Shown: positions 15,675 through 46,077 of the stretch, one piece after another
Layout: each line of letters begins with the position of its first letter
Position numbering within the stretch: position 1 is the stretch's first letter
Source of the DNA: Bacteroidales bacterium
GTDB lineage: Bacteria > Bacteroidota > Bacteroidia > Bacteroidales > 4484-276
Assembly (NCBI GenBank): GCA_029934065.1
Contig: JAOZMX010000002.1
Span: forward strand, 138-60,090
Direction of reading: 5' to 3'
Length of the DNA: 59,953 nucleotides
Notes under the pieces: model-generated
What the model was told of the DNA's origin: nothing
The model's database searches: none
What the model saw: only the letters and a program-made list of their open reading frames with translations
Position numbers and translations under genes: made by a program

Positions 15675-18600
15675 TTATTCAACCATCACAGACTGAATAA
15701 AGGTTTTCTGATTACCTGATATCTTTACCATGTACAATCCGGCCGGCTTTCCCGTCAGGTTAACGGATGTATTGCTGTTGGATTGACCGTGGTATATCAA
15801 CTGTCCGGAAGCATTGGTGATTTCTATCGTTGTTTTGTCAACAATGCCGTCAATAAAGAGTATCCCATGTGTTGGACTGGGATAGACACTGATGGTGTAG
15901 CCGGCTGCATCTTCCATTCCGGTTGCCTCTGCTTTGAGGGCGGAGATCACCGAGATACCGTTGACGGCAAAATAGTTTGTTTCACCGGCATAAGCATCAT
16001 ACAACGGAACAAGGACAAATGTCTCACCGGTGGCGGGTCTGTAAAGACGCAAGGTCATCGGTTCGCCCGGTGTGAGGCCGTCGTTTGCTGCAGTGCCCGG
16101 ATCGTCGCCGAAAGCGGTGATGGAAATGCTTCCGCCGGTGTACTGTGCAAAGCCGCAACATGTATTTTCACTGTTGAACACCCCGATCCGGTCGCCCGGG
16201 AGCAGTGTTCCGGCAGCTACGTTTTCGGGAAGGGCAATCACATGGGAGGTGGGTGAATAGACCGGTTCCGGCCAGGGATCGGTATTTTCGGGACGCAGGG
16301 CATTGGCCTGCCCGGCACCCGATTTCTGACAAACACTGAAAGTGATCTCACAGGGCTCGTTCACTTTGATCAGGTATGCCAGTCCCGGCTCCAGTGTATT
16401 CAAGGTGGTGATGCCGTACTGGGGCCAGTAAACCCTTGTACCGGCAATATCTTTTACGATGTCCAGTTTGGAGTTGATCGGTGAAAAAACATCATCGGCA
16501 GCCACCGGGCAATGATCGAGCACGGGCAGATAATACCATCCCGGATTGAGATTAATACTTAAATCGTCAGGATGCAATCCGTCGAATTCAACGGTAGCCG
16601 CTTCCGTAAGTTTGATCTGTGCACCTAAATAAGTATTCCATTCTCCGTTGCTGTAGGTGTTGATCCCTTGTGCGGGCCAGTACATCTGTTCAAAATCATT
16701 GACGATGATCAGTTGAGAATTTATATACTGGAATATTTTCTCCACTTCGGCGTCCCAAACGTCGAGATAGGTGGAAAGTCCGCTCCATCCCGCAGGAATA
16801 TTAACGATTTGAGCATCGAGAACGATCAGATTGATGACATCGGTTTCGGCAATGCCGCAATTGTTTTCCACGTCGCACCAATATTCACCGGCATCATCAA
16901 GAGACAAAGAGGGGATGGTATAAGTATTTGCCGCACTTGTGTAAACCGGTTCGCCATCGTGATACCATGTGTAAGTAAGGGGTTCGGTACCGGTGGCGTC
17001 CACAAAGAACGTAAACTGGCTGTTCACGACACGTGCGTCATCCTGCGTTTGAGCAGTGATGACGGGTGCATAATCCACCTCAACGGGAATGGCTCCGGTC
17101 ATCATGTTTTCGCAATTTGTCGTTGCGTTGATCCCTTTCACGGTATAAGTTCCCGAGAGCGGAGTAGTGTAAAATTCGAGGTAGCTTCCCGTTCCGGCCA
17201 GCACATCACCCGTAAGGACGCCGTCGCGCATCAGGTAGTAATCCACACCGACCTCCGAGTTGGCGACCTCCACGATGGCTGCCAATACCCCATCGCAAAA
17301 ATGGCCGCCGAGGGTAAGCACGTAAGGAATGGGCAGCGGATTGACGGTAACGGTAACGTCGTCGGTTTCCCAGCAGCCGTTGCCGTCGGTGACGGTAAGG
17401 GTGTAGGTGGTTGTCTCGTCGGGATTGGCAGTGGGGTTGGCAATGCCGGGATCGCTCAATCCGGTGGCAGGCGTCCATGAATAGACGTAGCCGGGTTCGC
17501 CGCCCGAAGCACTGCCTTGCAGTACCGTGGAGCTGCCGTAACAAATTGCTTCGTCATCGCCGGCATCGGCATACAACTGCGGATATTGCTGTACAAAAAC
17601 CTGCGCCTCTCCCCTGCAACCGATGGAGTCGGTGATGGTTACGGTGTAAAGTGTCGGTACCGACGGATTGGCCAGCGGGTTGGCAATGGTGGGATCGCTC
17701 AACCCGGTTGCCGGCGACCAACTGTAGGTGAACGGATCGTTGCCTGTCAGGGGTGTTGCTTCGATCATGACCGATTCGTACTGGCAGAACCATGCTTCGG
17801 AAACCAGGTCGATCTCCACCGGTGTGCAAACACGGATGATGCGGGATGAGCCCTCATTGGTCTCGCACTGGTAAAACCCCCGTTCGTTGGCGGTAATGGA
17901 TGCAAAATTTAGTGTCGAACCCGTGGCACCTGTAATTTCCAAACCGTTTTTATACCACTGGTAACCGCCGGTTCCCAACATTGCCCAGAACTCCGACGGT
18001 GTGTTGACAGCATTGTCGTTCAAGATGTAGATGTCCTGATCGTCTTCCCCTTTCCAGTAATTTTTCCTGATTTCCCAAATGCCGTCGTTATAAACATGTC
18101 CCAATATTTCAGCATCCAGCTTGTAATTATCGCCGGGATGATTGATCACCGAGCCGTTATTTTCAAAAACACCCTCAAACCATTGGGTTGGATAACTGTT
18201 GATAACATCATCATTTTGCATGATGCCGTTTAATATACAGTCGGTAAATGTATTGGGCCTCAAATCAACTGTTCCGCTGATGGAGAGATGGTCGAAAATT
18301 GTTGTGTTGAGCGTACATTTTCCGGTGCAGACCACATCGGCATACTCCTCTCCTTCGCAAGTAACGATCGCATTTTTTATTGTACAGCCGTTGATATCCA
18401 GCAGGCCGAATTCCGGGAGATAGAGGTTTCGCCCACCGAAATCCAGCACGGCATTCAACAGATAGAGTTCGTTTTCCACGGTAACATCTCCCCCTTTGGT
18501 GCCGATTAATATATCGTCAATCTCAAAGGGATTACCGTTTTGCGATTCGATATAATGCATGTCATCACCGTTGAAGACAAGACTTTCGGTTTTCCATTCC

Positions 18601-20930: not shown

Positions 20931-20956
20931 AGTGGTAAATTTTTGGGTGATCATAA

Positions 20957-21716: not shown

Positions 21717-24680
21717 TCAATTCTCCGGTTTCATCACCACACCGATTTTCTTTTTTCCGTCGATCTTGATGATCAGCGGCTTTTCAAAGCGGACATGCCG
21801 GATAAATTGGTCTTCGTATTCCGCTTCCATTTGATTCAGGTAATCAATATCGTAAAAGCCGTCGTTGATATATGGGTTGATGGTTAAATATCCCACTCTG
21901 AAGGAGGTGAGGTTCTGGAAAAAATGGGTTCCCTGACTGGGGTCAATGCGGTAATTTTTCAGCCCGGATTCAACAATAAGCCGTGCTGCCGATATTTGGG
22001 GCCATTTCACGGGGATGCCCAGCCACGGGTCGGCGGACCCCCATCTGCCGGGTCCCACGAGGATAAAATTTTTGCCTCCGGACAGGAAAGTGTCATTGAG
22101 TTTTCCGATGGTTTCGGCAATTTCGCGTGTGTGTGAGGCGTCAAAACCATCGGGCTTTACGTAAACAAAATCAACGATGTTGTCAATGATCCCGTTCCCC
22201 AGGGCATTTGCCGCCCAAATGACAGTTTCCTGTGGTTTTATCTTTTGCAGGTCCTCATCAATGGTTTCGGTACTGTTGACAATGGGCCGGATTTGAAGCA
22301 GATAAAATATCACCGGCTTGCCTTTCGGAACGTTCAGGTCAACGGCAAATTCAATCTCAATTCCGTTGTTCATCTCACGCTGGCCGATCTCAAGGATATC
22401 GCGGAGGATTTCCGCCAACGGAAAGACCTCATGTTTCAGGATGTTTGAGAAAGTGATCAGTTTTTTGCCCGGATAATTCACGCCGTCCCGGATGATGTTG
22501 CTGTTGTAATCGTAGGTTGAAGCCACCCATTTCAGGGAGCGGTCTTTTTCGGCCTCGCTGATGCGCAGTTTCAGCAAATTAACGGAATCGTCAACACAGG
22601 ATTTGAAATGTTCGGCATTGAGGTCGAGGGCATAAAAAGCTCGTTGCGTCTCCCGCAGGGCCATATCGGGCGATGACAGTTGAAGGATTTTTTTCGGATA
22701 TTTCGGCGAAAACCGCAATGTATTTCCTCCGTCCACGATGTATTTTCCCAGACCCAGCGCAATGTTGGCAATGCCGTCCTCGGATTGCTCGGGCGGGATG
22801 GGATAGAAATTGATCGAACGGGCAACACCCGATAAAGTGGGATAAAACCGGTCGCCGTATTGCGACCCGCAAACTTCCTGCAAAACAATCGCCATCTTTT
22901 CTTCGTCAATCACATTGAGCGTGGCATTCATGTAAGCCTTGCTGTCTTTGTAAAATGCGGAAGCATAAACGCTTTTGATGGCCATGCTCAGGTTGGTGAT
23001 CATCAGCCGTTCGTCATCCTCAACATTGGGGATCATGTAGGTGGAATAAATGCCGGCAAAGGGCTGGTAATGCGAGTCTTCGAGCAGGCTGGAGGAACGG
23101 ATGGCAATGGGGTTGTGTATCACAGAGATGAAAGCATAAAGGTCTTCGTGAATGCGAAACGGCAATCTTGCCGCAACGAAAGCATCGAGGATCTCACGGT
23201 CGGAACGGTCGGAAAGCGCAATGTCGTACAGATGATTTTCTTCCATAAATTCGTCGAACACATCGGTACACAAAACCGTGGTTCGCGGTATGGAAACGAT
23301 GATATTGTCGTATTTGTCGAACAGGTTGTTGCGTTTGATCAAAGAATCAATAAATGCCAGACCGCGGGCTTTTCCTCCGAGCGAACCATCTCCGATACGC
23401 GAAAAATTGAGGTATTCGTCAAACTGATCACGGTGAAATTCGGCAATCACACCCCGTCCTTTGTACATCCTGTACTTGGCAATGGCATCGTAAAGGTACC
23501 TTCGGATTTCGTCCAGATTGCTGAAGTCTTCGGTGGTGAATTGTTTGAATAGATCGGCCAAAGGAAAAAGCGCCCTGGCACGCAGCCATTTCGAGATGTG
23601 ATTCCGTGTGATATGGTACGAAAGCGAATCGTCGGGAATTTGGAAAAGTATTTCCTGCAAAGTCTTCAGATCGGGAGCCCGGGCAATCTCTTTCCCGGTT
23701 TTCGGATTGATAAACACAAAATCGCCGAAAGCAAAAAACCCCGTGATGAATTTGCGCAACTGCAGTGAGAGTGTTTTTGAATTTTTATTGATGAATCCCA
23801 CCTTCAGGGCTTTTGCAATCTCTTTGGCATCGTCGTCCGACGACTGAAGAAGCAGGGGCATGTACTTGTTGTCCTTTTTCACCATCTCGCACAAATGCTT
23901 TCCGGCAAATTTGTCATGAACACCGTTTCGGGTATAGCTCAAATCGGTGATGATGCCCAGCATGTTGTTTTTGTATTTGTGGTAAAATTCTTCCGCTTCC
24001 TCATAGGAAGTTGCCAGCAATATCTTCGGGCGTCCTCTCATCCTCAACATCTTCTGGTGTTCGTTCAAACCTTCCATCATAAAGGTTTTGGACTGTTTGA
24101 AAATGATCTTGTAAATATTGGGCAGATAAGACGAATAAAACCTCACCGAATCTTCCACCAGCATGATGACCTGCACACCCACTTTATTTACGTCGTGTTC
24201 CACATTCATCTTGTCTTCAATCAGTTTGATGATGGCAAGCAGGATGTCGGAATTGCCCAGCCAATTGAATACATAATCAATGTTTTTCAACCTCCCCGAA
24301 TAGAGCTTCATGGAAAACTCGCGCGAAAACGGTGTGAGCAAAACCGCCGGTATGTCCGGATATTTTTGTTTGATCTTATCAATGATCATTTCGTCGAAAG
24401 CACTCAACATCAGAATGATCAGGTCAATATTTTCCTCCTCCAGGATCTTTTCGGCTTCGGCATGTGTATTGGCCACAAGAAACTGCGGCGGATAACGAAG
24501 ATTCAGCGAAACATATTCGTTAAAAATCTGTTCGTCAATCCTGCCGTCGTCTTCAATGATGAAGGTGTCGTATTTGGTTGCGACCAACAGCACATGGTAG
24601 ATCCTTTTGTGCATCAAACTGTTGAACGAAGTATCGCTGAAAAGGTATTTTCTGGTTAATGTTTTTGTTTTTTCCGACAT
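21717..24680 (-). CDS. Receiver-domain-containing PEP/pyruvate-binding (PPDK_N ATP-grasp-like) protein
   Basis: 987-codon ORF with ATG start and no signal peptide. Two CheY-like stretches are present (HVLLVATKYDTFIIEDD...DLIILMLS and VIMLVEDSVRFYSSYLP...LGIITDLSY...PLLLQSS). The central block GDGSLGGKARGLAFIDSLI resembles the GGKAxxL motif of PPDK/PEP synthase nucleotide-binding domains. The C-terminal block is LVGPGRWGSADPWLGIPVKW...PSQGTHFFQN. I did not see a canonical phosphohistidine swivel or PEP-binding TIM-barrel. Confidence 0.75.
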   Translation of the reverse strand: MSEKTKTLTRKYLFSDTSFNSLMHKRIYHVLLVATKYDTFIIEDDGRIDEQIFNEYVSLNLRYPPQFLVANTHAEAEKILEEENIDLIILMLSAFDEMIIDKIKQKYPDIPAVLLTPFSREFSMKLYSGRLKNIDYVFNWLGNSDILLAIIKLIEDKMNVEHDVNKVGVQVIMLVEDSVRFYSSYLPNIYKIIFKQSKTFMMEGLNEHQKMLRMRGRPKILLATSYEEAEEFYHKYKNNMLGIITDLSYTRNGVHDKFAGKHLCEMVKKDNKYMPLLLQSSDDDAKEIAKALKVGFINKNSKTLSLQLRKFITGFFAFGDFVFINPKTGKEIARAPDLKTLQEILFQIPDDSLSYHITRNHISKWLRARALFPLADLFKQFTTEDFSNLDEIRRYLYDAIAKYRMYKGRGVIAEFHRDQFDEYLNFSRIGDGSLGGKARGLAFIDSLIKRNNLFDKYDNIIVSIPRTTVLCTDVFDEFMEENHLYDIALSDRSDREILDAFVAARLPFRIHEDLYAFISVIHNPIAIRSSSLLEDSHYQPFAGIYSTYMIPNVEDDERLMITNLSMAIKSVYASAFYKDSKAYMNATLNVIDEEKMAIVLQEVCGSQYGDRFYPTLSGVARSINFYPIPPEQSEDGIANIALGLGKYIVDGGNTLRFSPKYPKKILQLSSPDMALRETQRAFYALDLNAEHFKSCVDDSVNLLKLRISEAEKDRSLKWVASTYDYNSNIIRDGVNYPGKKLITFSNILKHEVFPLAEILRDILEIGQREMNNGIEIEFAVDLNVPKGKPVIFYLLQIRPIVNSTETIDEDLQKIKPQETVIWAANALGNGIIDNIVDFVYVKPDGFDASHTREIAETIGKLNDTFLSGGKNFILVGPGRWGSADPWLGIPVKWPQISAARLIVESGLKNYRIDPSQGTHFFQNLTSFRVGYLTINPYINDGFYDIDYLNQMEAEYEDQFIRHVRFEKPLIIKIDGKKKIGVVMKPEN

Positions 24681-29828: not shown

Positions 29829-29847
29829 ACCCTTTTCATTTTGCACA

Positions 29848-29889
29848 TTTTCCGCTGCCACTCAAAAACAGCGGGGAAACAGTTTTTTT
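29848..29889 (+). terminator. Terminator-like hairpin plus T7 between the 1570- and 5387-codon genes
   Basis: CCGCTG (29852-29857) pairs with CAGCGG (29869-29874) and is extendable with G-U pairs. The loop is 11 nt and T7 lies at 29883-29889. The T-tract is 8 nt from the stem, so this is not a textbook terminator. Confidence 0.4.
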
Positions 29890-29913
29890 GAACAAACGAA
29901 AAAATTTAAAACG

Positions 29914-35900: not shown

Positions 35901-38900
35901 ATTGAAAAATACCGGTGCGCTTGCCGTCGAAGTAAATGGTGTTTCATTCAGTGATCCCGATTTTCATACTGTCGATGTTATTGATAAAATCTTTCCCTTT
36001 GCTCAAAAACAATTACGGGTGGTTTTTGCTCCGTCGGTGGTTAAAACCTATGAGGCAACACTCACGTTACTGCTCGAAAATGCAACGTCACCCACTTTGG
36101 AAATCCCGCTCACGGGGCAAGGATTAACACCTCCGGTTCCCGTGTTCACTCCAACGCAAATAGACTTCGGCGATGTGCTTGTCAATAATACGGCCACCGA
36201 AAACGCCGTCCTTTCGAATGACGGAAATGCGCTTCTCGAAGTCTATTCGGCAACATTCGATAACGGGACCTTCCTCACCGACGATTTAATATTGCCTCAA
36301 ACCATCGGGTTTGGCGAGCAGATTGCGTTTCATATTTTCTTTCTTCCTTTGAATTACGAAACCGTCGTCGATCACCTGCTATTCAGTACCAACATGGGTT
36401 TGTTGAGTCTGCCGGTTTCGGGTACCGGTATTCCTCCCGATAACGACCTTTCGGTGATTGCCGTGGAAACTCCGCATGACGGCTGCGGCCTATCCGATAA
36501 TGAGTCCCTCACGATAACGATCAAGAATTTCGGGCAGTTTTCACAAAGTAATTTCAACGTCGGTTTTTCGCTGAACAATGCCGCACCGGTGATCGAAACG
36601 GTGAGCACCACCTTACCATCCGGCGAATCCACCGGATACACTTTTGCGCAAACCCTCGATCTGTCTGTTTTCGGAAATTATAGCATCGAAACTTTTACGT
36701 TGCTTGGCGACGATCAAAATACATGGAACGACACGCTGGCTTACAGTCTATCCAATTATCCTCCCGTAGGGGAAGTAACGGGCCTTTCGCCTGCCGACAG
36801 TTCATTCGGATGTGTCGAACCGGTTACGTTTTCATGGAATGCGGTTGATAATGCTTCCTTTTACGACTTGTATCTGTGGCGTACCAATCAGCAAAAACCC
36901 GAAGAACCGTCCGTGGAAGGATTAACAGCCACCTCTTATACATGGTATGCTTATCTGAACAAAAACTACCTTTACAACTGGCAAATCGTTGCCCGCAACG
37001 AATGTTCGCAGAGCGAGAGCGAGGTATTCGTATTTTCTTTCAACATCTTTTCCGACCTTACCGTACACAACATCGTGATCCCCGATACGGTGCAGGCGGG
37101 AGCAACCGTTGATGTCTCTTTCACCGTAACAAACAACGGTACCGGCGGAACGGGCATCATCCCCTGGAAAGACCGTTTGTATATTTCTCCGTCGCCGGTT
37201 TTTATTCCCGGTGAGGTGCAATTGCTGGCGGAAGTACAGAATGTAAAAGCCCTTTCGCAGGGAGAAAGTTACACCGATACGGTGAGCGTTGCCATAGGGG
37301 AATTGCTCGAAGGAGCCCAATACGTTTTTGTTTTTGCCGATGCGGGCAACATCATTCAGGAAACCGATGAAGAGAACAATCTCGGCGTGTCGCAGGGAAC
37401 AATGGAAGTGCTTTTGCCTCCCTATCCCGACCTGTCGGTTGAAGATGTGCAGTCCCTGACCGGGAATATCACCCCCGGCACCAACACTTCGGTAGGATGG
37501 ATGACGAAAAATATCGGCGATGCTCCGGCAATCGGAGGATGGAGTTGCAAAATATCCCTGGTTTCCGGCGAGCAACGTTTAATTCTCGGATACGTTCAAT
37601 ACACGGACACATTGGAGACGGGCGGTTTCATTACGCAAGCCGGCACTTTTGCCGTGCCCGAATACCCTGCCATGGAAGGAGAGGTGTATTTGGAAGTTGC
37701 CCTTACGCCTTATCCGGGTCTTGTCGAAAAGCCCAACGCCACGGCCAACAACACGGCCTTATCGGCCGAAAGCGTAACCCTTGAAAAACGGCTGTACATC
37801 TCCATTCCGCAACCGGTAATTGAAGAAAATGCCGTCAGCCCGTTGTGGTGCAATGTCTTCAGAAGCGGAAGCCGGGCCGAGGAACTTACCGTTACGCTCA
37901 ATGTTTCGGAAGAAAACAGGTTGATCCTTCCGGAAACGGTCAGCATTCCGGCCGAACAATCCGGTGCGGCATTTGCCGTGTCTCCCGTCAACAACGAATT
38001 GATAGAAGGTGATGTAACGGTGGAAATCGCGGCGCAGGCCGGAGATTACCCCGGCACCGCAGATACGCTGACGATCGTTGACGACGAAATGCCTTCGCTG
38101 AACGTGGAAATTACACCCGATGAGGCTGTTGAAGGAGAAATCGTAGATGTTACGGTAACGCGTGATCTGGTTACCTCGCAAGCATTGACGGTTTATCTCG
38201 TCGCCGGCATGTCTGATCAGTTGGAGTTGCCCGGTTCGGTTGAGATTCAGGGAAATCAGGCTTCGGCAACCATTGAGGTCCCTGTGATTGATGACAATGT
38301 CCCCGAACTCACCGTTGAGGTAACCGTAAGTGCTTTGCTGACGGGATACCTCACCGGAACGGACTCATTAACCATATCGGATGACGATATTCCCGCAATT
38401 TCATTCACGATCAATCCCGATACCGTCTCCGAAGCGGGCGGGCCCTATGCCTCATGGGGAACGATACAGTTGCAGGAGCCGGCCGACGGCACGCTGACGA
38501 TCCAACTGTCGGCAGACCCGCCCGGTGATATTTTCTTCCCGCAAATGATTACCATTGCCAACGGCATGACACAAAAGCAATTCAACATCGGAGCCGTGGA
38601 TAACGGTGTACTTGACGGTGACCGGGTAGTAGAACTTACGGCATCGGTATTTATCGAATCATGCAGTTGCGGTGCTCCTCCAACGAGTGGCGGCACAACA
38701 ACAAAAGAAATTACCGTACTTGACAACGACGGCCCTTCGCTTGCCGTCTCGGCGGAACCTTTTGTCGTTCCCGAAAACCTTGTGAATGCAGGGATACTGA
38801 CCGTTACACGAAATACCAACGGCGGTGATGCCGTGGAAATCACATTGCAAAACAATTCCCCCGACGAAATATCCTTGCCGGCAACGGCGGTGATTCCCGA

Positions 38901-41900
38901 AGGTGAAGATCAGGTGGAGGTACCTTTCGGCACAATTGACGACGATATTGAAGACGGCGACCAGATCGTGATGATCACCGTTTCAGCCGAAGGCTATGGA
39001 AGCGGTACCTGCTGGGTGATGGTTACCGACCTAAACCTGCCGGATTATACCATCCCGGATATTTCGCTTTCGCAAAACGACATTCTGATCAACGAAACCA
39101 TCACGGTAAACCTGTTCGTGAAAAATACCGGCTTTGCCGTTGCGCCCAACGGAGCCACTGTGAATATTTACCGTTCCGACGACACCATTCCCGACGATGA
39201 TGATCTGCTGCTCGATTCGCAAATCACACAAGACGGTCTTGATATCGGCGACTCGCTGGAAATTTCCTCGGAGATCACTTTTACCGGCGAAGTAGGGGAT
39301 TTTTACATCATTGCCACGGTAAACGAAAATAACAACCGCCCCGAATTGTTGAGTATCAACAACACTTCACTTGCATTGCCCCTCAGCGTTCAACCGGATT
39401 ATACGGCTACGGTAACCGTTGAGGAAGAGGTGTTCAACGGCCGTACACCCATTCCTATCCACGGCGTTACGCAAACGGTAAACAAAGCCCCCGTACCCGA
39501 TAAACCGGTTGATGTTTACATCATCGTTGACGGTGTGCGCAGGGTTCATCAGGTGATCAGCGACGAAAACGGAGAATTTGAATACCTCTTTATCCCTGTC
39601 AACGGCGAAGCAGGTAAGTATGATGTGGGTGCCTGCTATCCCGGCCAGGGCCTCACCGATGCCCAGGATGAGTTTACCATCCTCGGAGCCAAACATACCG
39701 AAACGGGCGATATTCTTTGGAACCTAACACTCGGGGAAACACAGCAGAAATTTCTTGAAATCAAAAATTTTACCGATTTACCGCTGCATAATCTTCAGGT
39801 GGAAGTCGAATGGGCTCCGGCGGGTTGTACGGTGAATTTCGTGCCGGTGGTCAATCTTCCCGGCAACGGTTATGCCACGATAAATTACAGCGTTGAAGCA
39901 ACGGCGGTAACACAAGGCGACCAGTATCAGCAGGTGAAACTATCTCTTGTTTCGGACGAAGGTACCCGTTTTGAATTCGTCACCTGGTTTTATGCCACGG
40001 CGCCCATAGGAAATCTCAAGCTTGACCCGGTGGTTTTGAATGCCACCATGGTACAAAATGAAATCAACTACGTTGAGTTTGAAGTGCAAAACAACGGACT
40101 GGACACCACCGGGCCGGTGAGCATCCTGTTACCGGAGCTCGACTGGCTGTCGCCGGCAAGCCCCGACACCATCCCGTCGCTGCAGCCGGGCGAAAGTGCC
40201 ACGGTAACGTTGAGCCTCACCCCGGGCGACGACTTGCAGCTCAACAATCCCGTTACCGGGCAACTGGTGCTTACCGGAACCAACAGCAACAGTGTGTTGT
40301 TGCCGTTCAGCTTCGAGCCCATTTCGCTCGAAACAGGCAACCTGCTGGTGGATGTGGTGGACGAGTACACCTACAACACGACGGCTGCACCTCACGTGGA
40401 GGGAGCTACCGTCATACTCAAGCATCCATACACCGGCGAAATTATTGCCGAAGGACAATCCGATGAAAACGGCCATTTCCTTGCCGAGGATATCAACGAA
40501 GGGTATTACGTCCTGAAAGTGGAAGCCCCGCAGCACATCGGATACCAGGATTATATCTACATCGACAAAGGCATTGTCAACGAGGTGGTAACATTTATTA
40601 CCTTTCAGGCCATCACCTACACATGGAATGTTGTTCCTACCGAAATCGAAGACCAATACGCCGTAACGCTCATCACACAGTTCGAGACCAATGTACCGGC
40701 TCCGGTGGTGATCATGGACATGCCCGACACGCTACCTCATCTTGAGCAAGGCGAATATTTCCCCTTTCTGGTAAATCTTACCAATGTGGGTTTGATCACC
40801 GCCGAGGATGTGGAAATCACTTTTCCGGATGATCCCGAATACATGTTTACCACAACGGTGGATCAGTTCGACATTTTGCCCAATCAAACCATACAGGTTC
40901 CTGTTGTGATGGAGGTTCGCCCGCCGGAGAAATCCGGTGACGGCAAGAAACTGGTTTGCGCCGATATCACCATTGCCAAATACCAGTTCGATTGTGGCCC
41001 CGACGGTAAACTGAGGGTTGTTGCCGCATGGAGTTTTTATCTCGGCAGGGTTTGCGGTGAATCCGGGACGCCGAGCAACATTTTTTCGCAACTGCCGAGT
41101 TTCGGCCCGGGCGGCCCCGGTGGAGGAGGGGGAAGCCTTAACAGCCCAGGCTGGTCTCCGGAGTATCAGGAACCGACACCTTATCAGGGAACCTACATTG
41201 CATGCGACACCTGTCTGGTGGATGCGATGAACTGCCTGCTGGATTGTATCAACCCGATCCCCGGGCCGTTGGATTGCGGTGCCGATCTGCTATCCAACAA
41301 ATTGAATTTACAAAATTATATTTCATGTATCCTCTCCGTGGTAGATGCTTTAACCGACGGAAAACTGGGCTGTTTCTACTGCATCGGAACCACCGCAGGT
41401 TGTTTCCTTACGGTACCGTTTCCCTCACCTCCCATTATTCCCATGGGAAACAAAGGATACTCGGAGCTTTCGGAAATGGAACAAATCTTTAACGACATGA
41501 TCTGGCTTAACAAGGGATACGGAGCCCTGGCCGATTATACCGTTGAAATTCTCGGAAACGAAAGTTTTCTCGAAAAAGAATACCTCGGCGAGTTCAGAGA
41601 TTCGGTTGCCGTATTTCTGGATGAAAAGATACCGGTTGATACGGTAACCCGCAACAATCTGGTGGTTGCCTTCGAAGATACCGACATCAGCGAGGAAGAA
41701 ATTCTGGACTTTGTTGATCATTGGAATACTACCATGGAAGCATGGAGCAACGGTATTTATTCTCCCACGCAGGAATATCCCGATATTGCTGATACTTTGC
41801 TATTGCATGAATACCAGTTGAATTACGATTCAACCATTCAATACACGCATACACGCGGTTATCCTTCGTTCGATTCGCTCTACAATGCCGATATGGTCAT

Positions 41901-44900
41901 CATGAGAGCTTATCTTGATAATGAATCCCAATCGGTATGTGCCACGGTAACGGTAGAGTTTTCGCAAACGCTGACCATGACCCGTGAGGCTTTCGAGGGA
42001 ACCCTGACCATTTTCAACGGACACGAAACCGATGCCATGCAAAACATCCAGCTTAACCTTGAAGTACGCGACGAAGAAGGGATCATCCGGAACGATCTCT
42101 TCCAGATCAATACCTTGTTGCTGGATGAAATAACGGCCATAGACGGCTCGGGGATTCTGGACGCCCAAACGGAAGGAAGTGTGGTGATACAATTTATCCC
42201 CGAACGCAGTGCCGCACCCACCGTGCCGAAGTATTATTCTTTCGGCGGAACACTGACCTATCTGGATCCTTTTACGGGAGAAATCTACGAACAACCGCTC
42301 TTTCCGGTAACCCTTCAGGTGAATCCCAGTCCGAATCTTTACATCGACTGTTTCATGCAACGCAATATCTTCGGCGACGATGCCCTCACCGAGCCCATCG
42401 AGCCCATGATTCCGGCGGAGCTTGCCGTGATGATCGACAATCAGGGCATGGGCACGGCCAAAAATGTTTCGCTCGAATCGGCACAACCGGTCATCATCGA
42501 CAACGACAAGGGCCTGTTGATCGACTTTGAGATCATCGGGTCGAACCTCGGCGGGCAACCCATGCAACTGGGCCTTTACAATGTTCAGTTCGGGGATATT
42601 CCCGGCGGTGAAACGGCTGTAGGCCAATGGTGGTTCACCAGCACTTTGCTCGGACATTTCGTCTCGTATGAAGCATCGGTAAATCATCTCGACAGCTACG
42701 GCAACCCCGACCTGAGTCTTGTGAGCGGCATACAGATTCATGAGTTGATCAAAAGTATCCGTGTTTACGGTGCGCTCGACGATAGCATCAACGATTTTCT
42801 CGTGAACGACATACCCGACGCAAATGATATTCCCGATGCTTTGTATTATTCCAACGGAGCCGTAGCCGAAGTTTTTGAGGCCGGGAGTATTCAGGCCGAC
42901 GGCGTGGTAACGCTCAACGATACGATCATTCAGATCACGGTGACGCCTTCCGAAGCAGGTTGGAACTACGCTTTGACGGATGATCCCGGAAACGGTTTGT
43001 ACAGGTTGGTGAGCTGCACACGCAGTGACGGGCAGGTGATTCCCGAAGAAAACATCTGGCTTACCTACTGCACCATTCCCGACGGTGATGAGCCGATTTA
43101 TGAAAACAAGCTTCATTTTGTGGATAATTTCGAAGCCACCGATTCGGGTGGTGCGGAACCGGCAGATTATACGGTAGTGTTTGAAGCCATCGATCAGGAT
43201 GTGCCCAAAGTGGTTGCCGTACTCGGTGTTCCCGAAGAGCCGGCTGATTATCCGGTGGAAAATGTTCAGGTCGTCTTCAGCGAACCCATCGAACCCACGA
43301 CGTTCGATTATCAGGACATGGTACTGAAAAATCAGGGAGGTCCCAATCTGATGGATACGCTTGTGACGGTAACTCCTGTTAACGATTCCGTCTTCGATGT
43401 GGACATCTCCGACAAAACTTCCAAAAACGGCTATTACACCCTTACCGTTCAGGCTTCGGGTGTGGCTGACCTCAGCGGAAACTACGGCAACGAAGGATTG
43501 CAGGTGTCGTGGATACAAGCCATTCAGGCGCCGGCCATTGATTATTTCTTCGGTGTTCCCGAAGAACCCGGCGAGCCGATAGATACGATCCTCGTATTGT
43601 TCAACATGCCCATTTACGAAATCACCTTTACCACCGATCAGCTGGAACTGACCGGCACCGACGGAAATCCGCTTCCCACAGGCAGCCTTGTGATCACTTC
43701 CGAAAGCCCCAACAGCGTGCTCTTCAAGATCAGCGGACTGGAAGCGCTTTGCGGTGATGACGGCACTTATCTGTTGACGGTAAAAGTAACGGAGATACAA
43801 GGAGTAACGGGATTGGCCGGTGTGCTTGACCAATCGGTAGGATGGACGGTGTGTCAAATCCCGTTTCCCACGGCTTTTGCAGGCAATGATGCTACCGTAT
43901 GTGCCGGAGCCGCTTATCCGCTCAACGGTACGGCGGAAAATGTAAGCTCGGTTTTATGGACAACTTCCGGAACGGGTACTTTCGACAACGAACAATCGTT
44001 GACGGCAGTTTATACTCCCGGAACGGAAGATTTGGCTGCAGGGTCTGTTGAAATTACGCTCAACGCACTGCCGCTCAATGACTGTGCGCCTTCCGCAACT
44101 TCATCCGTCACCCTTTCATTCGAAAACAATACAACTGTCAATGCCGGTGAAGATGCTGAAGTTTGCGAGAACGGAACGCATACTCTGTTCGGCATGGTAA
44201 CCAATGCAGAAAGTTTCGAATGGATCACCTCGGGCGACGGCATCTTTGATGATAACGGTATATTGACACCGGAATATTCTCCCGGCCCCTATGATGTTGA
44301 AACGGGATTTGCAATATTGTCGCTGGTGGCATATCCCGCAAGTCCGTGTACGATGCCCGACACTTCGTCGATAATGTTGACTGTAAAACACCTTCCCGAA
44401 GCTTCGGTAACGCCGGATACGACCATTTGTGAGGACGAAACACTTCAGCTTGATGCACAGGCATCCGACTACAGTTCATCGTTCTGGATTACCTTCGGAG
44501 ATGGTACATTCAGCTCGCAGCAGGTTCTAAATCCGGTTTATACGCCGGGTGCAGAGGATTTGCAAAAAGGCTCGGTATTTTTGGTGCTTGTTGTTTTGCC
44601 CGAAAGTCCCTGTTACACAAATGTCATTGTTCCGGCTCATGTTGCCTTTGCAAGGTTGCCAGAGGTGTATGCCGGGGAGGATTCTCCCGCAAGCGAATAC
44701 CAGCCCTATCAGCTTTCGGGCTTTGTGGATAATGCACTCTCTTTTATCTGGACAACTCTGGGCGACGGTGTTTTCGACGACCCCAACCGGATTGATGCGG
44801 TTTATTCCTTCGGCACCAACGACCTGACGGCGGGAGAAGTAACACTGACCCTGACGGCAGAACCGCTGAGCCCTTGCGTAAGTTCGGTGTCGGATGATAT

Positions 44901-46077
44901 CCATTTAACCGTTACACAATGTCAGAATTATGTCCTGCAAAGCGGCTGGACGGGAATTTCGTCTTTCGTGGAACCTGAGGAGAGCAATGTGGAGGTTATT
45001 TTTGAAAATGTGGTTGAAAACCTTGTTATCCTCCAGTCGCAAACCGGTTTTTACTGGCCTCCACAAAATGTCAACACCATCGGCAACTGGAACCTGACGG
45101 AAGGCTACAGCATCAAGGTGAACAACAAAACCAACCTCACCATCAGCGGAACAAAAACCGTTGTAAACACCTTGCAACTTAATCCGGGATGGAACCTGAT
45201 TCCGGTGTTGACTCCTTGCAGTGTTGACGTTGAACAATTGTTCCAGGGGTTGGATATGGTAATCGTCAAAGAAGATGCCGGCTGGGGAATTTACTGGCCC
45301 GAAATGAATGTCAACACCCTGGGGGAACTTACCCCCGGAAAAGCTTACTTTGTGCTGATGAACAATTTTGCGGAAATCCTCTTCCCGGATTGTACATCCG
45401 ACACCAAAGCGGGAAGCATCAACCCCCTGCCCGATATCAACGGATTGTTGCAAACGGCATCATGGAACGGCATTACCAATACTCCAGTGACACATATCGT
45501 GGCCATACCCCTCCGGGCCGTTGATCCCTCGCTTATCGCAACGGGAGATATCATCGGTGTGTTCGACGGTTTCGGCAACTGCTTCGGCGCCACGGTGTGG
45601 GAAGATGAAAATACGGCAATCACCTTGTTCGGTGAAGATATGCTTACCGCGGCCAACGACGGATTCGACGAGTTGGACAATTTGTACTTTAAAATTTTCG
45701 ACCCCTCGTCGGGAACGATTTTCGAACCGGAAGTAACATGGGATGAGGAAATGCCTGACCACGACGGCCTGTTTCATGCCGACGGACTATCGGCAATACA
45801 AAGTTTTTATCAAATTACAAACGTAAACCAGGAGACGGCCGGACAACAGCAAGTAAGGATTTATCCCAACCCTGCCACCGACAGACTGTTTATTGAATTT
45901 TCGCAACAACAGGATGTCACGGTGGATCTGTTTGATATTCACGGGCAGCAGATTCTTACAAAAGAGATATCCGGCGTTGCCGGACAATTGGATATTTCCG
46001 GACTGACAAGCGGGATTTATCTTGTGAAAATTGAAGGAGAAAAAACCAGCATTGTCAAAAGGGTCATAAAGCGGTAA
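29914..46077 (+). CDS. Giant (5387 aa) secreted T9SS cargo protein with multi-domain adhesin-like architecture
   Basis: Single uninterrupted 16,164-nt ORF with ATG start and signal peptide (FGIIVLLIALLNIQGLVTAQ). Recognised by motif: four copies of the GVFDG...TAWE module (two carrying nested LamG). At least ten choice-of-anchor-D/ASH-like Ig domains (pattern F.P...G.....L.I.SND...P...V.L.G.G). A third nested LamG (KGKMDEIRIWNIARNESEIQSAM). CARDB-like domains (SDLTVHNIVIPDTVQAGATVDVSFTVTNNG and PDYTIPDISLSQNDILINETITVNLFVKNTG). Four Calx-beta-like units. A carboxypeptidase-regulatory-like unit. A Cys/Gly-rich hinge and a ~750-aa unassigned core. Two SbsA-type Ig-like units. Four ~87-aa Cys-containing repeats. 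The shared cassette and T9SS CTD. Confidence 0.9.
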   Translation: MDTKNKTGYFRHFGIIVLLIALLNIQGLVTAQNEPFEPVPPTGLPYGIVLTNLNINGETLPVGTQIGVFDGELCVGVVDFDGSDTLNLIAWEGDTSQNLAGYTAGNPMSFKFHVLWHSEYQNFDAEANYSVGDGTFGYGNYSAVTLWVTTGLIPHCWVSDTLLMFNMVPVNQSRSLPVVFHNGGTAKLAVTGIENGDSHFTCSSSSLLIDPAEQDTLWVTFIPTETITYSDVLTMQTDDPDLPALSIPLYGAGIPQAQPHIVVNPAALHFGSIAHGTTSSLILNLFNNGDATLEITEITSSNDAFALFGNTPFTVEPGKNTDISVLFSPAQTGSYYGTLTIQNNDHPVVVPLTGTAAQGHFSCVEPTGKPYPVLIDTIMMDGYFPSPENEIAVFDGTLCVGTGTFISSNNDKSLSLDGDNDYLTNENSTEFDLQQLTLSAWVFSENFNQNGFIFEKGAKNTQYSLFFQGDQIFFGTKPEGTSGYDNFAVNSASAGITDGQWHFITATYDGLQKKIYVDGTLAGTQNYSQPLHTGEQGQIIGAYGATGGHGYYFNGLIDEVRVWNVARTGEEIRAGMLFSLHPNTLGLVGYWNFGDGSINNLAFGATPSVLHGDAVADGEQFGGIFSEILITAWEKDDALGLPGFTPGNPMSFKIWCDVFDTWAETNATAEFITGNGNFGAGQISVVDLSGNAGIAPHMGLPAEELFVGQVEPGNTAVNEFTVFNTGNAPLHLIVSENAEAFDVSVSNAVIDPADSLQIGITFSPDAPGGYSADMKLYSNDPDNPVTAILLNGFAIPSGEPGIATSMDHIGFFNVVVDSVKTLSFYVINTGTLPLTVTEMKTSCAQFSVSPSAFTLENTNDLKEVFVSFTPDAKGLFTDTLTIVSNAPDHQLELFGTGFENHFNPVDPTGKPYPIVVNETNLGTTITPGDELSVFDGNTCVGMAAGMEGYFGKAAVFSAGADYITVDEPGEFTEFTVEFWRKSTGNGISNNPRMISMWKTAPNNSSDDALVIEHTNSNQNTVTVWFSPDGDNKQIGDINLSQQQWHHLAFTFDGTTAKVYADGELKASETYAPDPGLTFHCLQIGGDEPMNRYFNGLMDEVRLWNVAKTEEQIRSLFRFRLKGDEEGLTGYWPFDEDMNDHSPLQHATQAFGDVSLTGDVPLLFKNGNLALTAWEKDVANGLPGFTPGNPMSFKLWTEINGIASELDAEPDYLVGDGTFGYGQLTVVNLAFGLPQIAVDPEEFFVALEEPDSTEVVLHISNPGVDDLGFVISKAPENGQAPWLAVSDTSGTIAPSASTEITVKLYSEGLNDGLYETSLLITNNTIDHSPFAVPVSLNVTGNPQIAAQPDSLCMGEVVIGESGEDTLTLVNIGTKALIIDDMAILHSVTSGFDFSLPAKDFPVVLPPGGNLKVILLFAPSSTGFVTDTLTVSSNAVNDPGMQVILSGRGVTPADIYIPETVFGYTVVCGGTYSDSLKIHNLGQQTLEFALQSNAAWLEGYPQEAVIPGGDSITVHLNISAVDLYAGNYESVLTVNSNDPDDPVAELFSTLTVTGDPEIISTDYFDMGTAYLGDTLTGELAVANNGCDTLKVFSVSVESQYPVFIIDNSPFAIPPGEDKPLLITFVPLDIRQYSAIVILNSNDPVTPELQVVIAATGAEHPDMTVTPQNFEITLQSGENTQEPFTVENTGGESLIYQSEVSPMNSYMLNFDGDGDYINVLNDNSLNSGDALTVELWLYPSENADQFILGKENSVEGTYRLRINGDQHYEFRLNRQFSVISNTPATADQWTHVAATFDGSTMRLFINGILDAEQTFAPFTIESSSDNVRIGRSYKYKYFKGKMDEIRIWNIARNESEIQSAMGLTLSGDDPELMLYFPFTKSSGSIVNDASANGNNGILYGNPFRQQSTAPYDDFLSLINGNGSVEPGEQQSVILSVNSSGFPAGGYQRSVVVTSNSVNNPSDTVSLVVNIEGSGIINPVPAQLTFDNIFTGQTDTLMLTLKNTGALAVEVNGVSFSDPDFHTVDVIDKIFPFAQKQLRVVFAPSVVKTYEATLTLLLENATSPTLEIPLTGQGLTPPVPVFTPTQIDFGDVLVNNTATENAVLSNDGNALLEVYSATFDNGTFLTDDLILPQTIGFGEQIAFHIFFLPLNYETVVDHLLFSTNMGLLSLPVSGTGIPPDNDLSVIAVETPHDGCGLSDNESLTITIKNFGQFSQSNFNVGFSLNNAAPVIETVSTTLPSGESTGYTFAQTLDLSVFGNYSIETFTLLGDDQNTWNDTLAYSLSNYPPVGEVTGLSPADSSFGCVEPVTFSWNAVDNASFYDLYLWRTNQQKPEEPSVEGLTATSYTWYAYLNKNYLYNWQIVARNECSQSESEVFVFSFNIFSDLTVHNIVIPDTVQAGATVDVSFTVTNNGTGGTGIIPWKDRLYISPSPVFIPGEVQLLAEVQNVKALSQGESYTDTVSVAIGELLEGAQYVFVFADAGNIIQETDEENNLGVSQGTMEVLLPPYPDLSVEDVQSLTGNITPGTNTSVGWMTKNIGDAPAIGGWSCKISLVSGEQRLILGYVQYTDTLETGGFITQAGTFAVPEYPAMEGEVYLEVALTPYPGLVEKPNATANNTALSAESVTLEKRLYISIPQPVIEENAVSPLWCNVFRSGSRAEELTVTLNVSEENRLILPETVSIPAEQSGAAFAVSPVNNELIEGDVTVEIAAQAGDYPGTADTLTIVDDEMPSLNVEITPDEAVEGEIVDVTVTRDLVTSQALTVYLVAGMSDQLELPGSVEIQGNQASATIEVPVIDDNVPELTVEVTVSALLTGYLTGTDSLTISDDDIPAISFTINPDTVSEAGGPYASWGTIQLQEPADGTLTIQLSADPPGDIFFPQMITIANGMTQKQFNIGAVDNGVLDGDRVVELTASVFIESCSCGAPPTSGGTTTKEITVLDNDGPSLAVSAEPFVVPENLVNAGILTVTRNTNGGDAVEITLQNNSPDEISLPATAVIPEGEDQVEVPFGTIDDDIEDGDQIVMITVSAEGYGSGTCWVMVTDLNLPDYTIPDISLSQNDILINETITVNLFVKNTGFAVAPNGATVNIYRSDDTIPDDDDLLLDSQITQDGLDIGDSLEISSEITFTGEVGDFYIIATVNENNNRPELLSINNTSLALPLSVQPDYTATVTVEEEVFNGRTPIPIHGVTQTVNKAPVPDKPVDVYIIVDGVRRVHQVISDENGEFEYLFIPVNGEAGKYDVGACYPGQGLTDAQDEFTILGAKHTETGDILWNLTLGETQQKFLEIKNFTDLPLHNLQVEVEWAPAGCTVNFVPVVNLPGNGYATINYSVEATAVTQGDQYQQVKLSLVSDEGTRFEFVTWFYATAPIGNLKLDPVVLNATMVQNEINYVEFEVQNNGLDTTGPVSILLPELDWLSPASPDTIPSLQPGESATVTLSLTPGDDLQLNNPVTGQLVLTGTNSNSVLLPFSFEPISLETGNLLVDVVDEYTYNTTAAPHVEGATVILKHPYTGEIIAEGQSDENGHFLAEDINEGYYVLKVEAPQHIGYQDYIYIDKGIVNEVVTFITFQAITYTWNVVPTEIEDQYAVTLITQFETNVPAPVVIMDMPDTLPHLEQGEYFPFLVNLTNVGLITAEDVEITFPDDPEYMFTTTVDQFDILPNQTIQVPVVMEVRPPEKSGDGKKLVCADITIAKYQFDCGPDGKLRVVAAWSFYLGRVCGESGTPSNIFSQLPSFGPGGPGGGGGSLNSPGWSPEYQEPTPYQGTYIACDTCLVDAMNCLLDCINPIPGPLDCGADLLSNKLNLQNYISCILSVVDALTDGKLGCFYCIGTTAGCFLTVPFPSPPIIPMGNKGYSELSEMEQIFNDMIWLNKGYGALADYTVEILGNESFLEKEYLGEFRDSVAVFLDEKIPVDTVTRNNLVVAFEDTDISEEEILDFVDHWNTTMEAWSNGIYSPTQEYPDIADTLLLHEYQLNYDSTIQYTHTRGYPSFDSLYNADMVIMRAYLDNESQSVCATVTVEFSQTLTMTREAFEGTLTIFNGHETDAMQNIQLNLEVRDEEGIIRNDLFQINTLLLDEITAIDGSGILDAQTEGSVVIQFIPERSAAPTVPKYYSFGGTLTYLDPFTGEIYEQPLFPVTLQVNPSPNLYIDCFMQRNIFGDDALTEPIEPMIPAELAVMIDNQGMGTAKNVSLESAQPVIIDNDKGLLIDFEIIGSNLGGQPMQLGLYNVQFGDIPGGETAVGQWWFTSTLLGHFVSYEASVNHLDSYGNPDLSLVSGIQIHELIKSIRVYGALDDSINDFLVNDIPDANDIPDALYYSNGAVAEVFEAGSIQADGVVTLNDTIIQITVTPSEAGWNYALTDDPGNGLYRLVSCTRSDGQVIPEENIWLTYCTIPDGDEPIYENKLHFVDNFEATDSGGAEPADYTVVFEAIDQDVPKVVAVLGVPEEPADYPVENVQVVFSEPIEPTTFDYQDMVLKNQGGPNLMDTLVTVTPVNDSVFDVDISDKTSKNGYYTLTVQASGVADLSGNYGNEGLQVSWIQAIQAPAIDYFFGVPEEPGEPIDTILVLFNMPIYEITFTTDQLELTGTDGNPLPTGSLVITSESPNSVLFKISGLEALCGDDGTYLLTVKVTEIQGVTGLAGVLDQSVGWTVCQIPFPTAFAGNDATVCAGAAYPLNGTAENVSSVLWTTSGTGTFDNEQSLTAVYTPGTEDLAAGSVEITLNALPLNDCAPSATSSVTLSFENNTTVNAGEDAEVCENGTHTLFGMVTNAESFEWITSGDGIFDDNGILTPEYSPGPYDVETGFAILSLVAYPASPCTMPDTSSIMLTVKHLPEASVTPDTTICEDETLQLDAQASDYSSSFWITFGDGTFSSQQVLNPVYTPGAEDLQKGSVFLVLVVLPESPCYTNVIVPAHVAFARLPEVYAGEDSPASEYQPYQLSGFVDNALSFIWTTLGDGVFDDPNRIDAVYSFGTNDLTAGEVTLTLTAEPLSPCVSSVSDDIHLTVTQCQNYVLQSGWTGISSFVEPEESNVEVIFENVVENLVILQSQTGFYWPPQNVNTIGNWNLTEGYSIKVNNKTNLTISGTKTVVNTLQLNPGWNLIPVLTPCSVDVEQLFQGLDMVIVKEDAGWGIYWPEMNVNTLGELTPGKAYFVLMNNFAEILFPDCTSDTKAGSINPLPDINGLLQTASWNGITNTPVTHIVAIPLRAVDPSLIATGDIIGVFDGFGNCFGATVWEDENTAITLFGEDMLTAANDGFDELDNLYFKIFDPSSGTIFEPEVTWDEEMPDHDGLFHADGLSAIQSFYQITNVNQETAGQQQVRIYPNPATDRLFIEFSQQQDVTVDLFDIHGQQILTKEISGVAGQLDISGLTSGIYLVKIEGEKTSIVKRVIKR
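31144..31788 (+). other. LamG-like domain 1 nested inside GVFDG...TAWE module copy G2 (30994-31983)
   Basis: Module first half: CVEPTGKPYPVLI...ENEIAVFDGTLCVGTGTFISSNN. Then LSLDGDNDYL...WHFITATYDGLQKKIYVDG...GLIDEVRVWNVARTGEEIRAGM...GYWNFGDG. Then module second half: ILITAWEKDDALGLPGFTPGNPMSFKIW...GNGNFGAGQISVVDL. Confidence 0.65.
32752..33408 (+). other. LamG-like domain 2 nested inside GVFDG...TAWE module copy G3 (32614-33606)
   Basis: Module first half: FNPVDPTGKPYPIVV...GDELSVFDGNTCVGMAAGMEGYF. Then AVFSAGADYITV...WHHLAFTFDGTTAKVYADG...GLMDEVRLWNVAKTEEQIRSLF...GYWPFDED. Then module second half: LALTAWEKDVANGLPGFTPGNPMSFKLW...GDGTFGYGQLTVVNL. Confidence 0.65.
35020..35540 (+). other. LamG-like domain 3 nested inside an Ig-like (choice-of-anchor-D-like) domain spanning 34891-35825
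   Basis: Host first half: VTPQNFEITLQSGENTQEPFTVENTGGESLIYQSEVS. Then YMLNFDGDGDYINV...WTHVAATFDGSTMRLFING...GKMDEIRIWNIARNESEI...LMLYFPF. Then host second half: FLSLINGNGSVEPGEQQSVILSVNSSGFPAGGYQRSVVVTSNSVNNPSDTVSLVVNIEG. Confidence 0.6.
37790..39045 (+). repeat. Four tandem Calx-beta-like units (~100 aa each; tentative)
   Basis: Four successive segments share a common layout. Each has a short strand, then an E/N-rich site and a T/V-R-x-G-like turn, then an 'L/I-P..V.I..G....F.V..V/I.D' block, and ends in TIVDDEMPSL, TISDDDIPAI, TVLDNDGPSL or MVTDLNLP. The DY signature of canonical Calx-beta is absent, so the call is tentative. Confidence 0.5.
43873..44920 (+). repeat. Four tandem ~87-aa Cys-containing repeats (A.AG.D...C...L.G......W.T.GDG.F......Y.PG..D...G.V.L.L......C)
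   Basis: Repeat starts: AFAGNDATVCAGAAYPLNGTAENVSSVLWTTSGTGTFDN, VNAGEDAEVCENGTHTLFGMVTNAESFEWITSGDGIFDD, SVTPDTTICEDETLQLDAQASDYSSSFWITFGDGTFSS, VYAGEDSPASEYQPYQLSGFVDNALSFIWTTLGDGVFDD. This repeat style is common in large Bacteroidota surface proteins. Confidence 0.7.
45853..46074 (+). other. T9SS type-A C-terminal sorting domain of the 5387-codon product
   Basis: VRIYPNPATDRLFIEFSQQQDVTVDLFDIHGQQILTKEISGVAGQLDISGLTSGIYLVKIEGEKTSIVKRVIKR is a near-textbook Por-secretion-tail sequence. Confidence 0.85.

Follow-up and report, generated by a model that had tools for sequence, protein, structure and literature searches.

Type IX secretion system (T9SS) adhesins with a type-A C-terminal domain (CTD), e.g., RemA of Flavobacterium johnsoniae (TIGR04183/PF18962), consist of a signal peptide, a lectin- or immunoglobulin (Ig)-like passenger, and a CTD of ~75 aa. 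The same plan, with a putative signal peptide, is found in three giant proteins, here designated A, B, and C, that are encoded by a 59,953-nucleotide stretch of DNA (the window; GenBank assembly GCA_029934065.1, contig JAOZMX010000002.1, positions 138 to 60,090) from an uncultured, Lentimicrobiaceae-like Bacteroidales bacterium; a fourth gene, R, encoding a receiver (REC) domain fused to a PPDK_N domain, is located between A and B. Unlike RemA-like cargo, however, A, B, and C carry an additional ~300-aa cassette of three domains (D1, D2, and GD) that has not been described for model cargo, and the size of C (5387 aa) is extreme.

Three other described systems invite comparison. In RgpB of Porphyromonas gingivalis, an Ig superfamily (IgSF) domain precedes the CTD (5ag8); like the cassette, it is a beta-rich element between the passenger and a cleavable CTD, near the anchor, but it is a single Ig-like domain, whereas three lobes are predicted as a rigid unit here. 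Beyond the CTD, neither sequence comparison nor Foldseek finds any likeness to RgpB. SprB and the other giants with type-B CTDs, which have PorP/SprF shuttles, are likewise giant, repetitive T9SS surface proteins for gliding or adhesion, and in that system the CTD-adjacent region and a dedicated partner set the final localization (PMC12618676). If the cassette specified a destination, this type-B system would be its nearest counterpart; however, A, B, and C have type-A CTDs instead of type-B ones (TIGR04131), and no porP/sprF-like gene is found downstream. Finally, R resembles the T9SS regulators of the PorX type in that a receiver is fused to a non-DNA-binding, enzymatic-type output, but the output is PPDK_N (ATP-grasp) instead of PglZ, and the conserved neighbors of R encode redox enzymes or else a small histidine kinase, not T9SS components. 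PglZ finds no match in R, that is, the PorX-like combination of REC and PglZ (alkaline phosphatase superfamily) is absent.

In Bacteroidota, giant genes for adhesin-like T9SS proteins are commonplace, so that the locus as first described is unremarkable, and its arrangement is not conserved; the novelty lies in the D1-D2-GD cassette, widespread yet unannotated, and in the nesting of LamG domains within GD. At least 2,000 protein clusters contain the cassette, and uncultured bacteria are the source of nearly all of them. Naming it would allow better annotation of thousands of 'hypothetical' metagenomic proteins and would provide a testable candidate for control of the fate of type-A cargo at the surface after the CTD is removed. 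We consider it probable (roughly 0.7) that A, B, and C are separate giant type-A T9SS cargo proteins whose common pre-CTD cassette serves as a pedestal or retention base, with R and A as independent members of the neighborhood.

The D1-D2-GD cassette

An initial annotation of the window, made from the sequence alone, proposed that A, B, and C end in the same ~380-aa cassette and reuse a ~110-aa module of no named family. An all-versus-all BLAST recovers the cassette: A1385-1749, B1192-1567, and C5010-5385 align with 26-34% identity (E values of 1e-16 to 1e-47), and ~300 aa of this common C-terminal block are located outside the CTD; the alternative that the common regions are only the generic CTD does not hold, as the cassette extends well upstream. 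The alignment and sub-hidden Markov models (sub-HMMs) divide the cassette into, in order, D1 and D2 (~78 aa each), a variable Pro/Gly-rich linker, and GD (~125 aa), after which the CTD follows; in all three proteins the order is retained, the cassette ends ~75-95 aa from the C-terminus, and a type-A CTD comes next. D1 and D2, with the motifs GW..IPV, YWP..NxNT.G, and PGKAY, are homologous to each other (hhalign probability 99%); GD, with the motif GD-IGVFD..C.G, and the CTD are unrelated to them. The reused ~110-aa module proves to be GD, of which the GDmod HMM identifies extra copies in B and C, including two in C that are split (Table 1).

The cassette is absent from the family databases: across 31 family members, no Pfam or NCBIfam model matches it even at E<=1, and only CTD-type families are matched. 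Its profile finds no relative among PDB sequences, and Foldseek against PDB and BFVD returns only generic beta-sandwich noise (best E values of 0.02 and 0.002; template modeling (TM) score <=0.2), so no known fold could be assigned to it. AlphaFold predicts the cassette alone as one compact unit (predicted local distance difference test (pLDDT) 91.9; predicted TM score (pTM) 0.89); when the CTD is included, pTM is 0.74, and a linker of ~10 residues with pLDDT <50 separates GD from the CTD. The model of C5005-5387, the last 383 residues of C, has a pLDDT of 91, and Foldseek aligns its CTD with solved T9SS CTDs, i.e., those of NucA in the translocon (8glk_D; TMt 0.79), mirolase (8qb1_A; 0.72), and RgpB (5ag8_A); for C, the one protein so modeled, the CTD has the 7-stranded Ig-like beta-sandwich fold.

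Distribution of the cassette

The D1-D2-GD cassette is an ancient, widespread, unnamed module in a fixed pre-CTD position. When 1.84 billion cluster representatives are searched with a profile built from the cassettes of A, B, and C, 9,547 match at E<=1e-3, of which 2,038 reach E<=1e-30. The full cassette is present in 135 of the 146 top matches inspected; it ends 65-105 aa from the C-terminus in 129 of these 135 (median 84), and 132 of the top-match cassette proteins inspected have a CTD-profile match. A separate metagenome scan, built on 12 closer sequences, yielded 82 cassette open reading frames (ORFs) in 79 loci, with a median tail of 85 aa after the cassette. A type-A CTD accompanies the cassette in all nine proteins and in 30 of the 31 alignment members sampled.

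The proteins that bear the cassette range from 344 to 6,114 aa; nearly all are metagenomic and have either no name or the name 'hypothetical protein'. Their passengers include PKD, Ig_7, Cohesin, GEVED, and SprB repeats as well as a GH18-containing giant, and one protein (P0163) combines SprB repeats, the cassette, and a type-A CTD; minimal proteins of ~450 aa contain little beyond a signal peptide, the cassette, and the CTD. The window itself encodes a fourth type-A T9SS cargo (147-3554, plus strand), with a BNR/sortilin-like beta-propeller, an F5/8 type C domain, and a CTD, that does not have the cassette; therefore, the cassette marks only a subset of the organism's cargo.

Cassette genes are neighbors of one another in 8 of 73 informative metagenome loci and also in the loci of P0165 and P0129. 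Co-oriented cassette genes were observed in L113, L145/L163, L150, L159, L166, L167 (three in a row), L175, L089/L090, and L093/L094. Other genes seen beside cassette genes encode a TPR/HisKA_3 kinase (6 loci), a LuxR-type regulator (5 loci), and a 348-aa protein without a Pfam match that appears beta-helix-like by eye only (6 loci); each was considered as a partner of the cassette and rejected, being present in only 5-6 of the 79 loci.

The three giant genes and their passengers

Together, A, B, and C account for 26,133 nt of a 30,403-nt span (15675-46077); we thereby reproduce the coordinates and codon counts of the three giant ORFs in the initial annotation, its estimate that ~26.1 kb of 30.4 kb codes for three proteins, and the divergent layout that it described around R (21717-24680). 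Six public metagenome assemblies contain the locus at 99-100% DNA identity, which rules out an artifact of assembly. A scan of 15-47 kb for signs of phase variation or shuffling (DNA repeats, invertible-promoter-like inverted repeats, and tandem repeats) found none.

Each protein begins with a basic and then hydrophobic segment that ends in an A-x-A-like site (A, MKKIFTQFAIALMATIAISIHAQA/A; B, MKTLFTSFVLLALTAIALQA/H; C, ...FGIIVLLIALLNIQGLVTAQ/N), read by eye from the translations instead of with a predictor. At the other end, the type-A CTDs that had been proposed for all three are confirmed by TIGR04183 (type A sorting domain), with scores of 44 (A), 29 (B), and 60.6 bits (C) against a curated NCBIfam cut-off of 23 bits. 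For Pfam PF18962, A scores 39.7 bits and C 58-60 bits; B, with 24.6-26.6 bits, is slightly below the Pfam cut-off of 27 and also matches FlgD_ig. Between these ends, the passengers consist of non-enzymatic repeat, Ig-like, lectin-like (LamG), and beta-helix domains, an adhesin-like make-up.

Protein A has, in order, a putative signal peptide, an array of ~170-aa repeats, Ig/PKD-like domains, the cassette, and the CTD, with Pfam matches to Ig_3, Ig_2, K319L PKD, and Por_Secre_tail; an alternative, earlier ATG is present at 20954. An iterated HMM detects each repeat with an E value of 1e-55 to 1e-70. The repeats are as long as first described, but five are full and one partial instead of six; they match nothing in Pfam at E<=1, including Beta_helix and NosD, so 'beta-helix-like' is a putative label for them. 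A protein search finds full-length orthologues of A with 42-58% identity, in other contexts without R, B, or C nearby; the N-terminal 1300 aa, used as a single query in the metagenome scan, gave no confirmed relatives.

Several small observations accompany A. A 56-codon, Lys-rich ORF (MKPGRKPSKKKINKKK...; 20957-21127, minus strand) ends 2 nt before the upstream ATG of A and is also called by gene callers in the identical metagenome contigs; in L093 and L094 a 52-aa ORF is called 5' of the A orthologue, but ~900 nt off. These two loci derive from the two metagenome samples in which the window locus also occurs and contain a 58%-identical paralogue or orthologue of A, which is adjoined by an 861-aa Peptidase_S74 gene and a 457-aa cassette-plus-CTD gene (L093 15608-19584; L094 9486-13462). 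Peptidase_S74 is an intramolecular chaperone of the tail-spike type.

Protein B contains, in order, a putative signal peptide, a right-handed beta-helix (aa 310-570), fn3, LamG_3 (aa 784-939), the extra GD, the cassette, and the CTD. The beta-helix, annotated at the outset as a PbH1 parallel beta-helix, is matched by PF13229 (E = 1.8e-32) and PF05048 (NosD; E = 2.3e-23), and the extra GD is 44% identical to C36-169. On the same strand, C starts 85 nt 3' of B. This pairing recurs in contig L176, where a C-like gene begins 83 nt after a full-length B orthologue (53% identity); the region of this gene that spans signal peptide, LamG, and GD is 52% identical to C33-215, and the gene is cut by the contig end. 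B and C thus probably constitute a conserved pair. The spacers between the paired genes (window 29829-29913; L176 6605-6686) each hold a GC-rich hairpin, CCGCTG...CAGCGG followed by a T-run in the window and a 15-bp stem in L176, that could be a terminator or attenuator. A seemingly split B gene in L002 was dismissed as a scaffolding artifact, since its DNA matches the window at 99% identity and overlaps where the pieces are joined.

Protein C has orthologues with 52-73% identity in L097, L098, L100, L103, and L111. Its choice-of-anchor D array is recognized by NF012200 (E = 1e-73, 7 stretches), PF22544, and ASH/Cep192-type models; the other domains include three LamG_3, CARDB, BACON_2, Big_5, and PKD-like repeats, and ~2,000 residues are sparsely annotated. 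Of the domains first assigned to C, choice-of-anchor-D-like and CARDB-like domains are retained, but the Calx-beta-like domains are not, since no Pfam Calx-beta match is found in C at E<=1e-3, nor in aa 2701-4636 at E<=1. In each split GD copy, the first 40-46 profile positions and the remainder are located on either side of a complete LamG_3 domain (in the first copy, HMM 1-46 and 46-117); the insertion, which occurs twice in C, separates the 'FDG.LCVG' strand from the 'ITAWEKD' strand that follows it. In B and in the C-like gene of L176, LamG is beside GD, not within it.

R and the unity of the locus

Gene R encodes, in order, a degenerate receiver-like region, REC, PPDK_N (ATP-grasp; E = 3e-39), and a ~170-aa C-terminal region. 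The Response_reg match is weak and below the cut-off, yet is recorded in most orthologues, and inspection shows the acceptor position occupied by an Asp. The family to which R belongs, well conserved in Bacteroidales/Lentimicrobiaceae, comprises more than 8000 homologues, with full-length identities of 65-82% for the best. We collected R orthologues (63-82% identity) from 80 species-representative genomes and from the two closest metagenome contigs (81-82%); among the 80 genomes, at least 3 kb are available upstream of R in 62 and downstream in 71. The most common neighbor, upstream on the same strand at a distance of ~0.1-1.5 kb in 21 of the 80 genomes, encodes a ~1240-aa oxidoreductase, a fusion of 2Fe-2S, 4Fe-4S, FAD, and molybdopterin domains (Fer2_4, Fer4_20, Pyr_redox_2, Fer4, Molybdopterin); these loci include L017, L020, L025, L031, L047, L053-L055, L061, L063-L065, L076, L082, and L085. 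In the closest relatives (6 loci), a small HisKA/HATPase kinase is beside R. A scan of the R flanks for promoters and terminators gave results no better than shuffled sequence. The pairing with the oxidoreductase hints at a redox or metabolic role for the R family; R would be a phospho-relay-type metabolic regulator or enzyme that is merely located between giant genes.

The initial annotation instead read the span as one modular surface system around R, its members linked by the common cassette; in its strongest form, A, B, C, and R would have co-evolved, with R as the dedicated regulator. The local picture is suggestive: divergent giant genes flank R, three cassette genes lie within 30 kb here as compared with none in ~1.5 Mb of related R loci, and cassette genes do cluster in metagenome loci (8 of 73). 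In addition, one of the 79 cassette loci (L113) has a distant R-like gene, 40% identical, beside two cassette genes. However, a single such neighbor among 79 loci is about what chance would give for so common a family, and the synteny between the cassette and R that would be expected is not found: in all 82 R loci, the 10 kb around the R orthologue are devoid of cassette genes, of homologues of A, B, or C, and of every other gene of the window. The recurrent neighbors of R are the large oxidoreductase (21 loci) or the histidine kinase (6 loci), and both the A orthologues and the B orthologue in L176 occur without R.

The cassettes themselves tell the same story, as the three are not mutual closest relatives. 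Those of A, B, and C are 24-31% identical to one another but 66%, 72%, and 55% identical to cassettes on other contigs, and they represent different deep subfamilies; also, no long DNA repeats are shared by A, B, and C. The three genes therefore are neither local duplicates nor being homogenized, and the early statement that they are 'not simple paralogues' stands. A linking role of the cassette is not supported either: it is not specific to this locus but occurs in type-A cargo proteins by the thousand that are otherwise unrelated. What survives of the earlier proposal is that these are modular T9SS surface or secreted proteins with a common cassette; the neighborhood as a whole is largely not conserved, the exception being the pair of B and a C-like gene in L176. 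We conclude that A and R are independent neighbors of the B-C pair and that a system centered on R, which we regard as highly improbable, is largely excluded.

Possible functions of the cassette

In the mechanism that we favor, Sec would carry A, B, and C into the periplasm, and the CTD would engage the PorV/SprA pathway, as established for type-A CTDs. Cleavage in the linker of low model confidence behind GD (predicted at C ~5303-5311, model residues 299-307) would then remove the CTD, and the C-terminus so created would be joined to the cell surface, leaving the rigid D1-D2-GD unit as the membrane-proximal base of the mature protein, i.e., as a spacer, retention, or docking element. This base would keep the passenger off the outer membrane and possibly dock to a shared surface partner or to other cassettes.

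A number of points weigh against the pedestal/retention explanation. The role of the cassette is read only from its invariant position, its predicted rigidity, and its independence of the passenger, and the signal peptides are putative, recognized by eye only. No genes for the T9SS machinery (SprA/Sov, PorV, PorU, PorK-N) are found within the 60-kb window. It is in Porphyromonas and Flavobacterium, rather than in the present lineage, that cleavage of the CTD and anchoring to lipid/lipopolysaccharide (LPS) are known. The conservation of the B-C pair is observed in one additional contig (L176). Finally, some GD copies of C, namely C41-169 and the two split ones, are remote from its C-terminal end, which suggests that GD has a function of its own, e.g., binding, and is more than a base.

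That last point also fits a different explanation, in which the cassette, or at least GD, is a glycan- or surface-binding unit, the passengers are accessory, and the cassette-only proteins are small adhesins or lectins. The stand-alone ~450-aa cassette + CTD proteins are compatible with such a role, as are the reuse of GD away from the C-terminus, where it is twice host to a nested LamG lectin-like domain, the conserved aromatic and Asn/Thr-rich motifs in the alignments (YWP..NxNT.G and PGKAY), and the sugar-utilization genes in the window flanks. However, the cassette resembles no carbohydrate-binding module (CBM) or lectin family in either sequence or fold, the argument from motifs is purely inferential, and a binding tip at the membrane-proximal end of proteins of 1,500-5,400 aa would be awkwardly placed; we consider a binding unit unlikely, although the stand-alone proteins and the non-terminal GD copies favor it. 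A role in secretion is improbable. The cassette would then be an extended determinant of T9SS recognition, export competence, or folding of very large cargo, as its invariant position next to the CTD, its compact beta-rich predicted fold, and its nearly complete association with type-A CTDs (9/9 proteins; 30/31 alignment members) might lead one to expect; the IgSF domain before the RgpB CTD and the longer signals needed by type-B CTDs offer parallels. Yet a type-A CTD of ~100 aa is both necessary and, alone, sufficient for the export of heterologous proteins via PorV (PMC12618676), and most T9SS cargo, including that at 147-3554 of the window, has no cassette. Moreover, the GD copies at the N-terminus of C and inside B and C cannot serve as C-terminal signals, and small proteins of 450 aa carry the cassette just as giants do. 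For translocation itself, the cassette would thus be dispensable.

A more specific version of docking, drawn by analogy to the type-B system, is that the cassette is a destination or assembly determinant, a common rigid base through which diverse passengers (350 to more than 6000 aa) would dock either with one another or with a single partner in the outer membrane or at the surface that all of them share. We offer this as a tentative suggestion with low confidence; its proteins may then be a previously unrecognized sub-class of type-A T9SS cargo. Type-A cargo is described as either released or statically anchored after export (PMC12618676), so docking by the cassette, if true, would add a sorting layer to a pathway now thought to end only in these two ways.

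Features of the locus and other genes in the window

Table 1. Coordinates of genes A, R, B, and C and of their domains in the window.
Feature	Window position	Strand	Residues	Evidence or remark
Gene A	15675..20930	minus	1751 aa	intact ORF
A type-A CTD	15681..15887	minus	1682-1750	PF18962 E = 6e-10; TIGR04183 E = 1.7e-11
A cassette GD	15915..16256	minus	1559-1672	GDmod HMM E = 4.7e-40
A D1 + D2	16299..16778	minus	1385-1544	GWrep HMM E = 1e-32, 2e-34
A repeat array	17847..20666	minus	89-916; 917-1028	five ~170-aa repeats; partial sixth
Gene R (REC/PPDK_N)	21717..24680	minus	987 aa	between A and B
Gene B	25116..29828	plus	1570 aa	intact ORF
B extra GD	28302..28694	plus	1063-1193	abuts D1 directly; GDmod HMM E = 5e-56
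B D1 + D2	28686..29159	plus	1191-1348	GWrep HMM E = 1.6e-30, 1.7e-32
B cassette GD	29211..29579	plus	1366-1488	GDmod HMM E = 2.7e-50
B CTD	29571..29819	plus	1486-1568	FlgD_ig/Por_Secre_tail type
Gene C	29914..46077	plus	5387 aa	intact ORF
C N-terminal GD	30034..30420	plus	41-169	GDmod HMM E = 6.7e-56
C choice-of-anchor D/HYDIN-VesB-type Ig array	30394..36438	plus	~161-2175	LamG_3 and BACON_2 interspersed
C split GD 1	31009..32007	plus	366-410, 627-698	nested LamG_3, ~417-610
C split GD 2	32632..33600	plus	907-944, 1163-1229	nested LamG_3, ~954-1155
C PKD-like repeats	43822..44919	plus	4637-5002	four of ~88 aa, before cassette; self-BLAST 33-44% identity, weak PKD_4
C D1 + D2	44956..45405	plus	5015-5164	GWrep HMM E = 3e-31, 1.4e-30; AlphaFold2 pLDDT >90
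C cassette GD	45475..45858	plus	5188-5315	GDmod HMM E = 7e-42; AlphaFold2 pLDDT >90
C type-A CTD	45859..46074	plus	5316-5387	TIGR04183 E = 1e-16; Foldseek to solved CTDs

Directly 3' of C, a run of small envelope genes (46448-50085, plus strand) encodes a 236-aa ORF without a Pfam match, DUF3575, two DUF4136 lipoprotein-like proteins, and an outer membrane protein (OMP) beta-barrel. The window flanks code for sugar utilization (GH31, FGGY and pfkB kinases, a major facilitator superfamily (MFS) sugar transporter, and a sulfatase). Both the DUF3575/DUF4136/OMP genes and the upstream sugar-utilization genes were considered as partners and discarded, as none recurs beside orthologues of A, B, or C or beside cassette genes; the DUF3575/DUF4136/OMP run, absent beside C orthologues and other cassette genes, is for this reason probably unrelated. 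Farther downstream, the region 52000-54100 has a low GC content (0.37) and includes, on the minus strand at 53520-54032, a truncated fragment from the N-terminal part of DUF1016; located between the sulfatase gene and metH, this fragment is possibly the remnant of a mobile or defense element.

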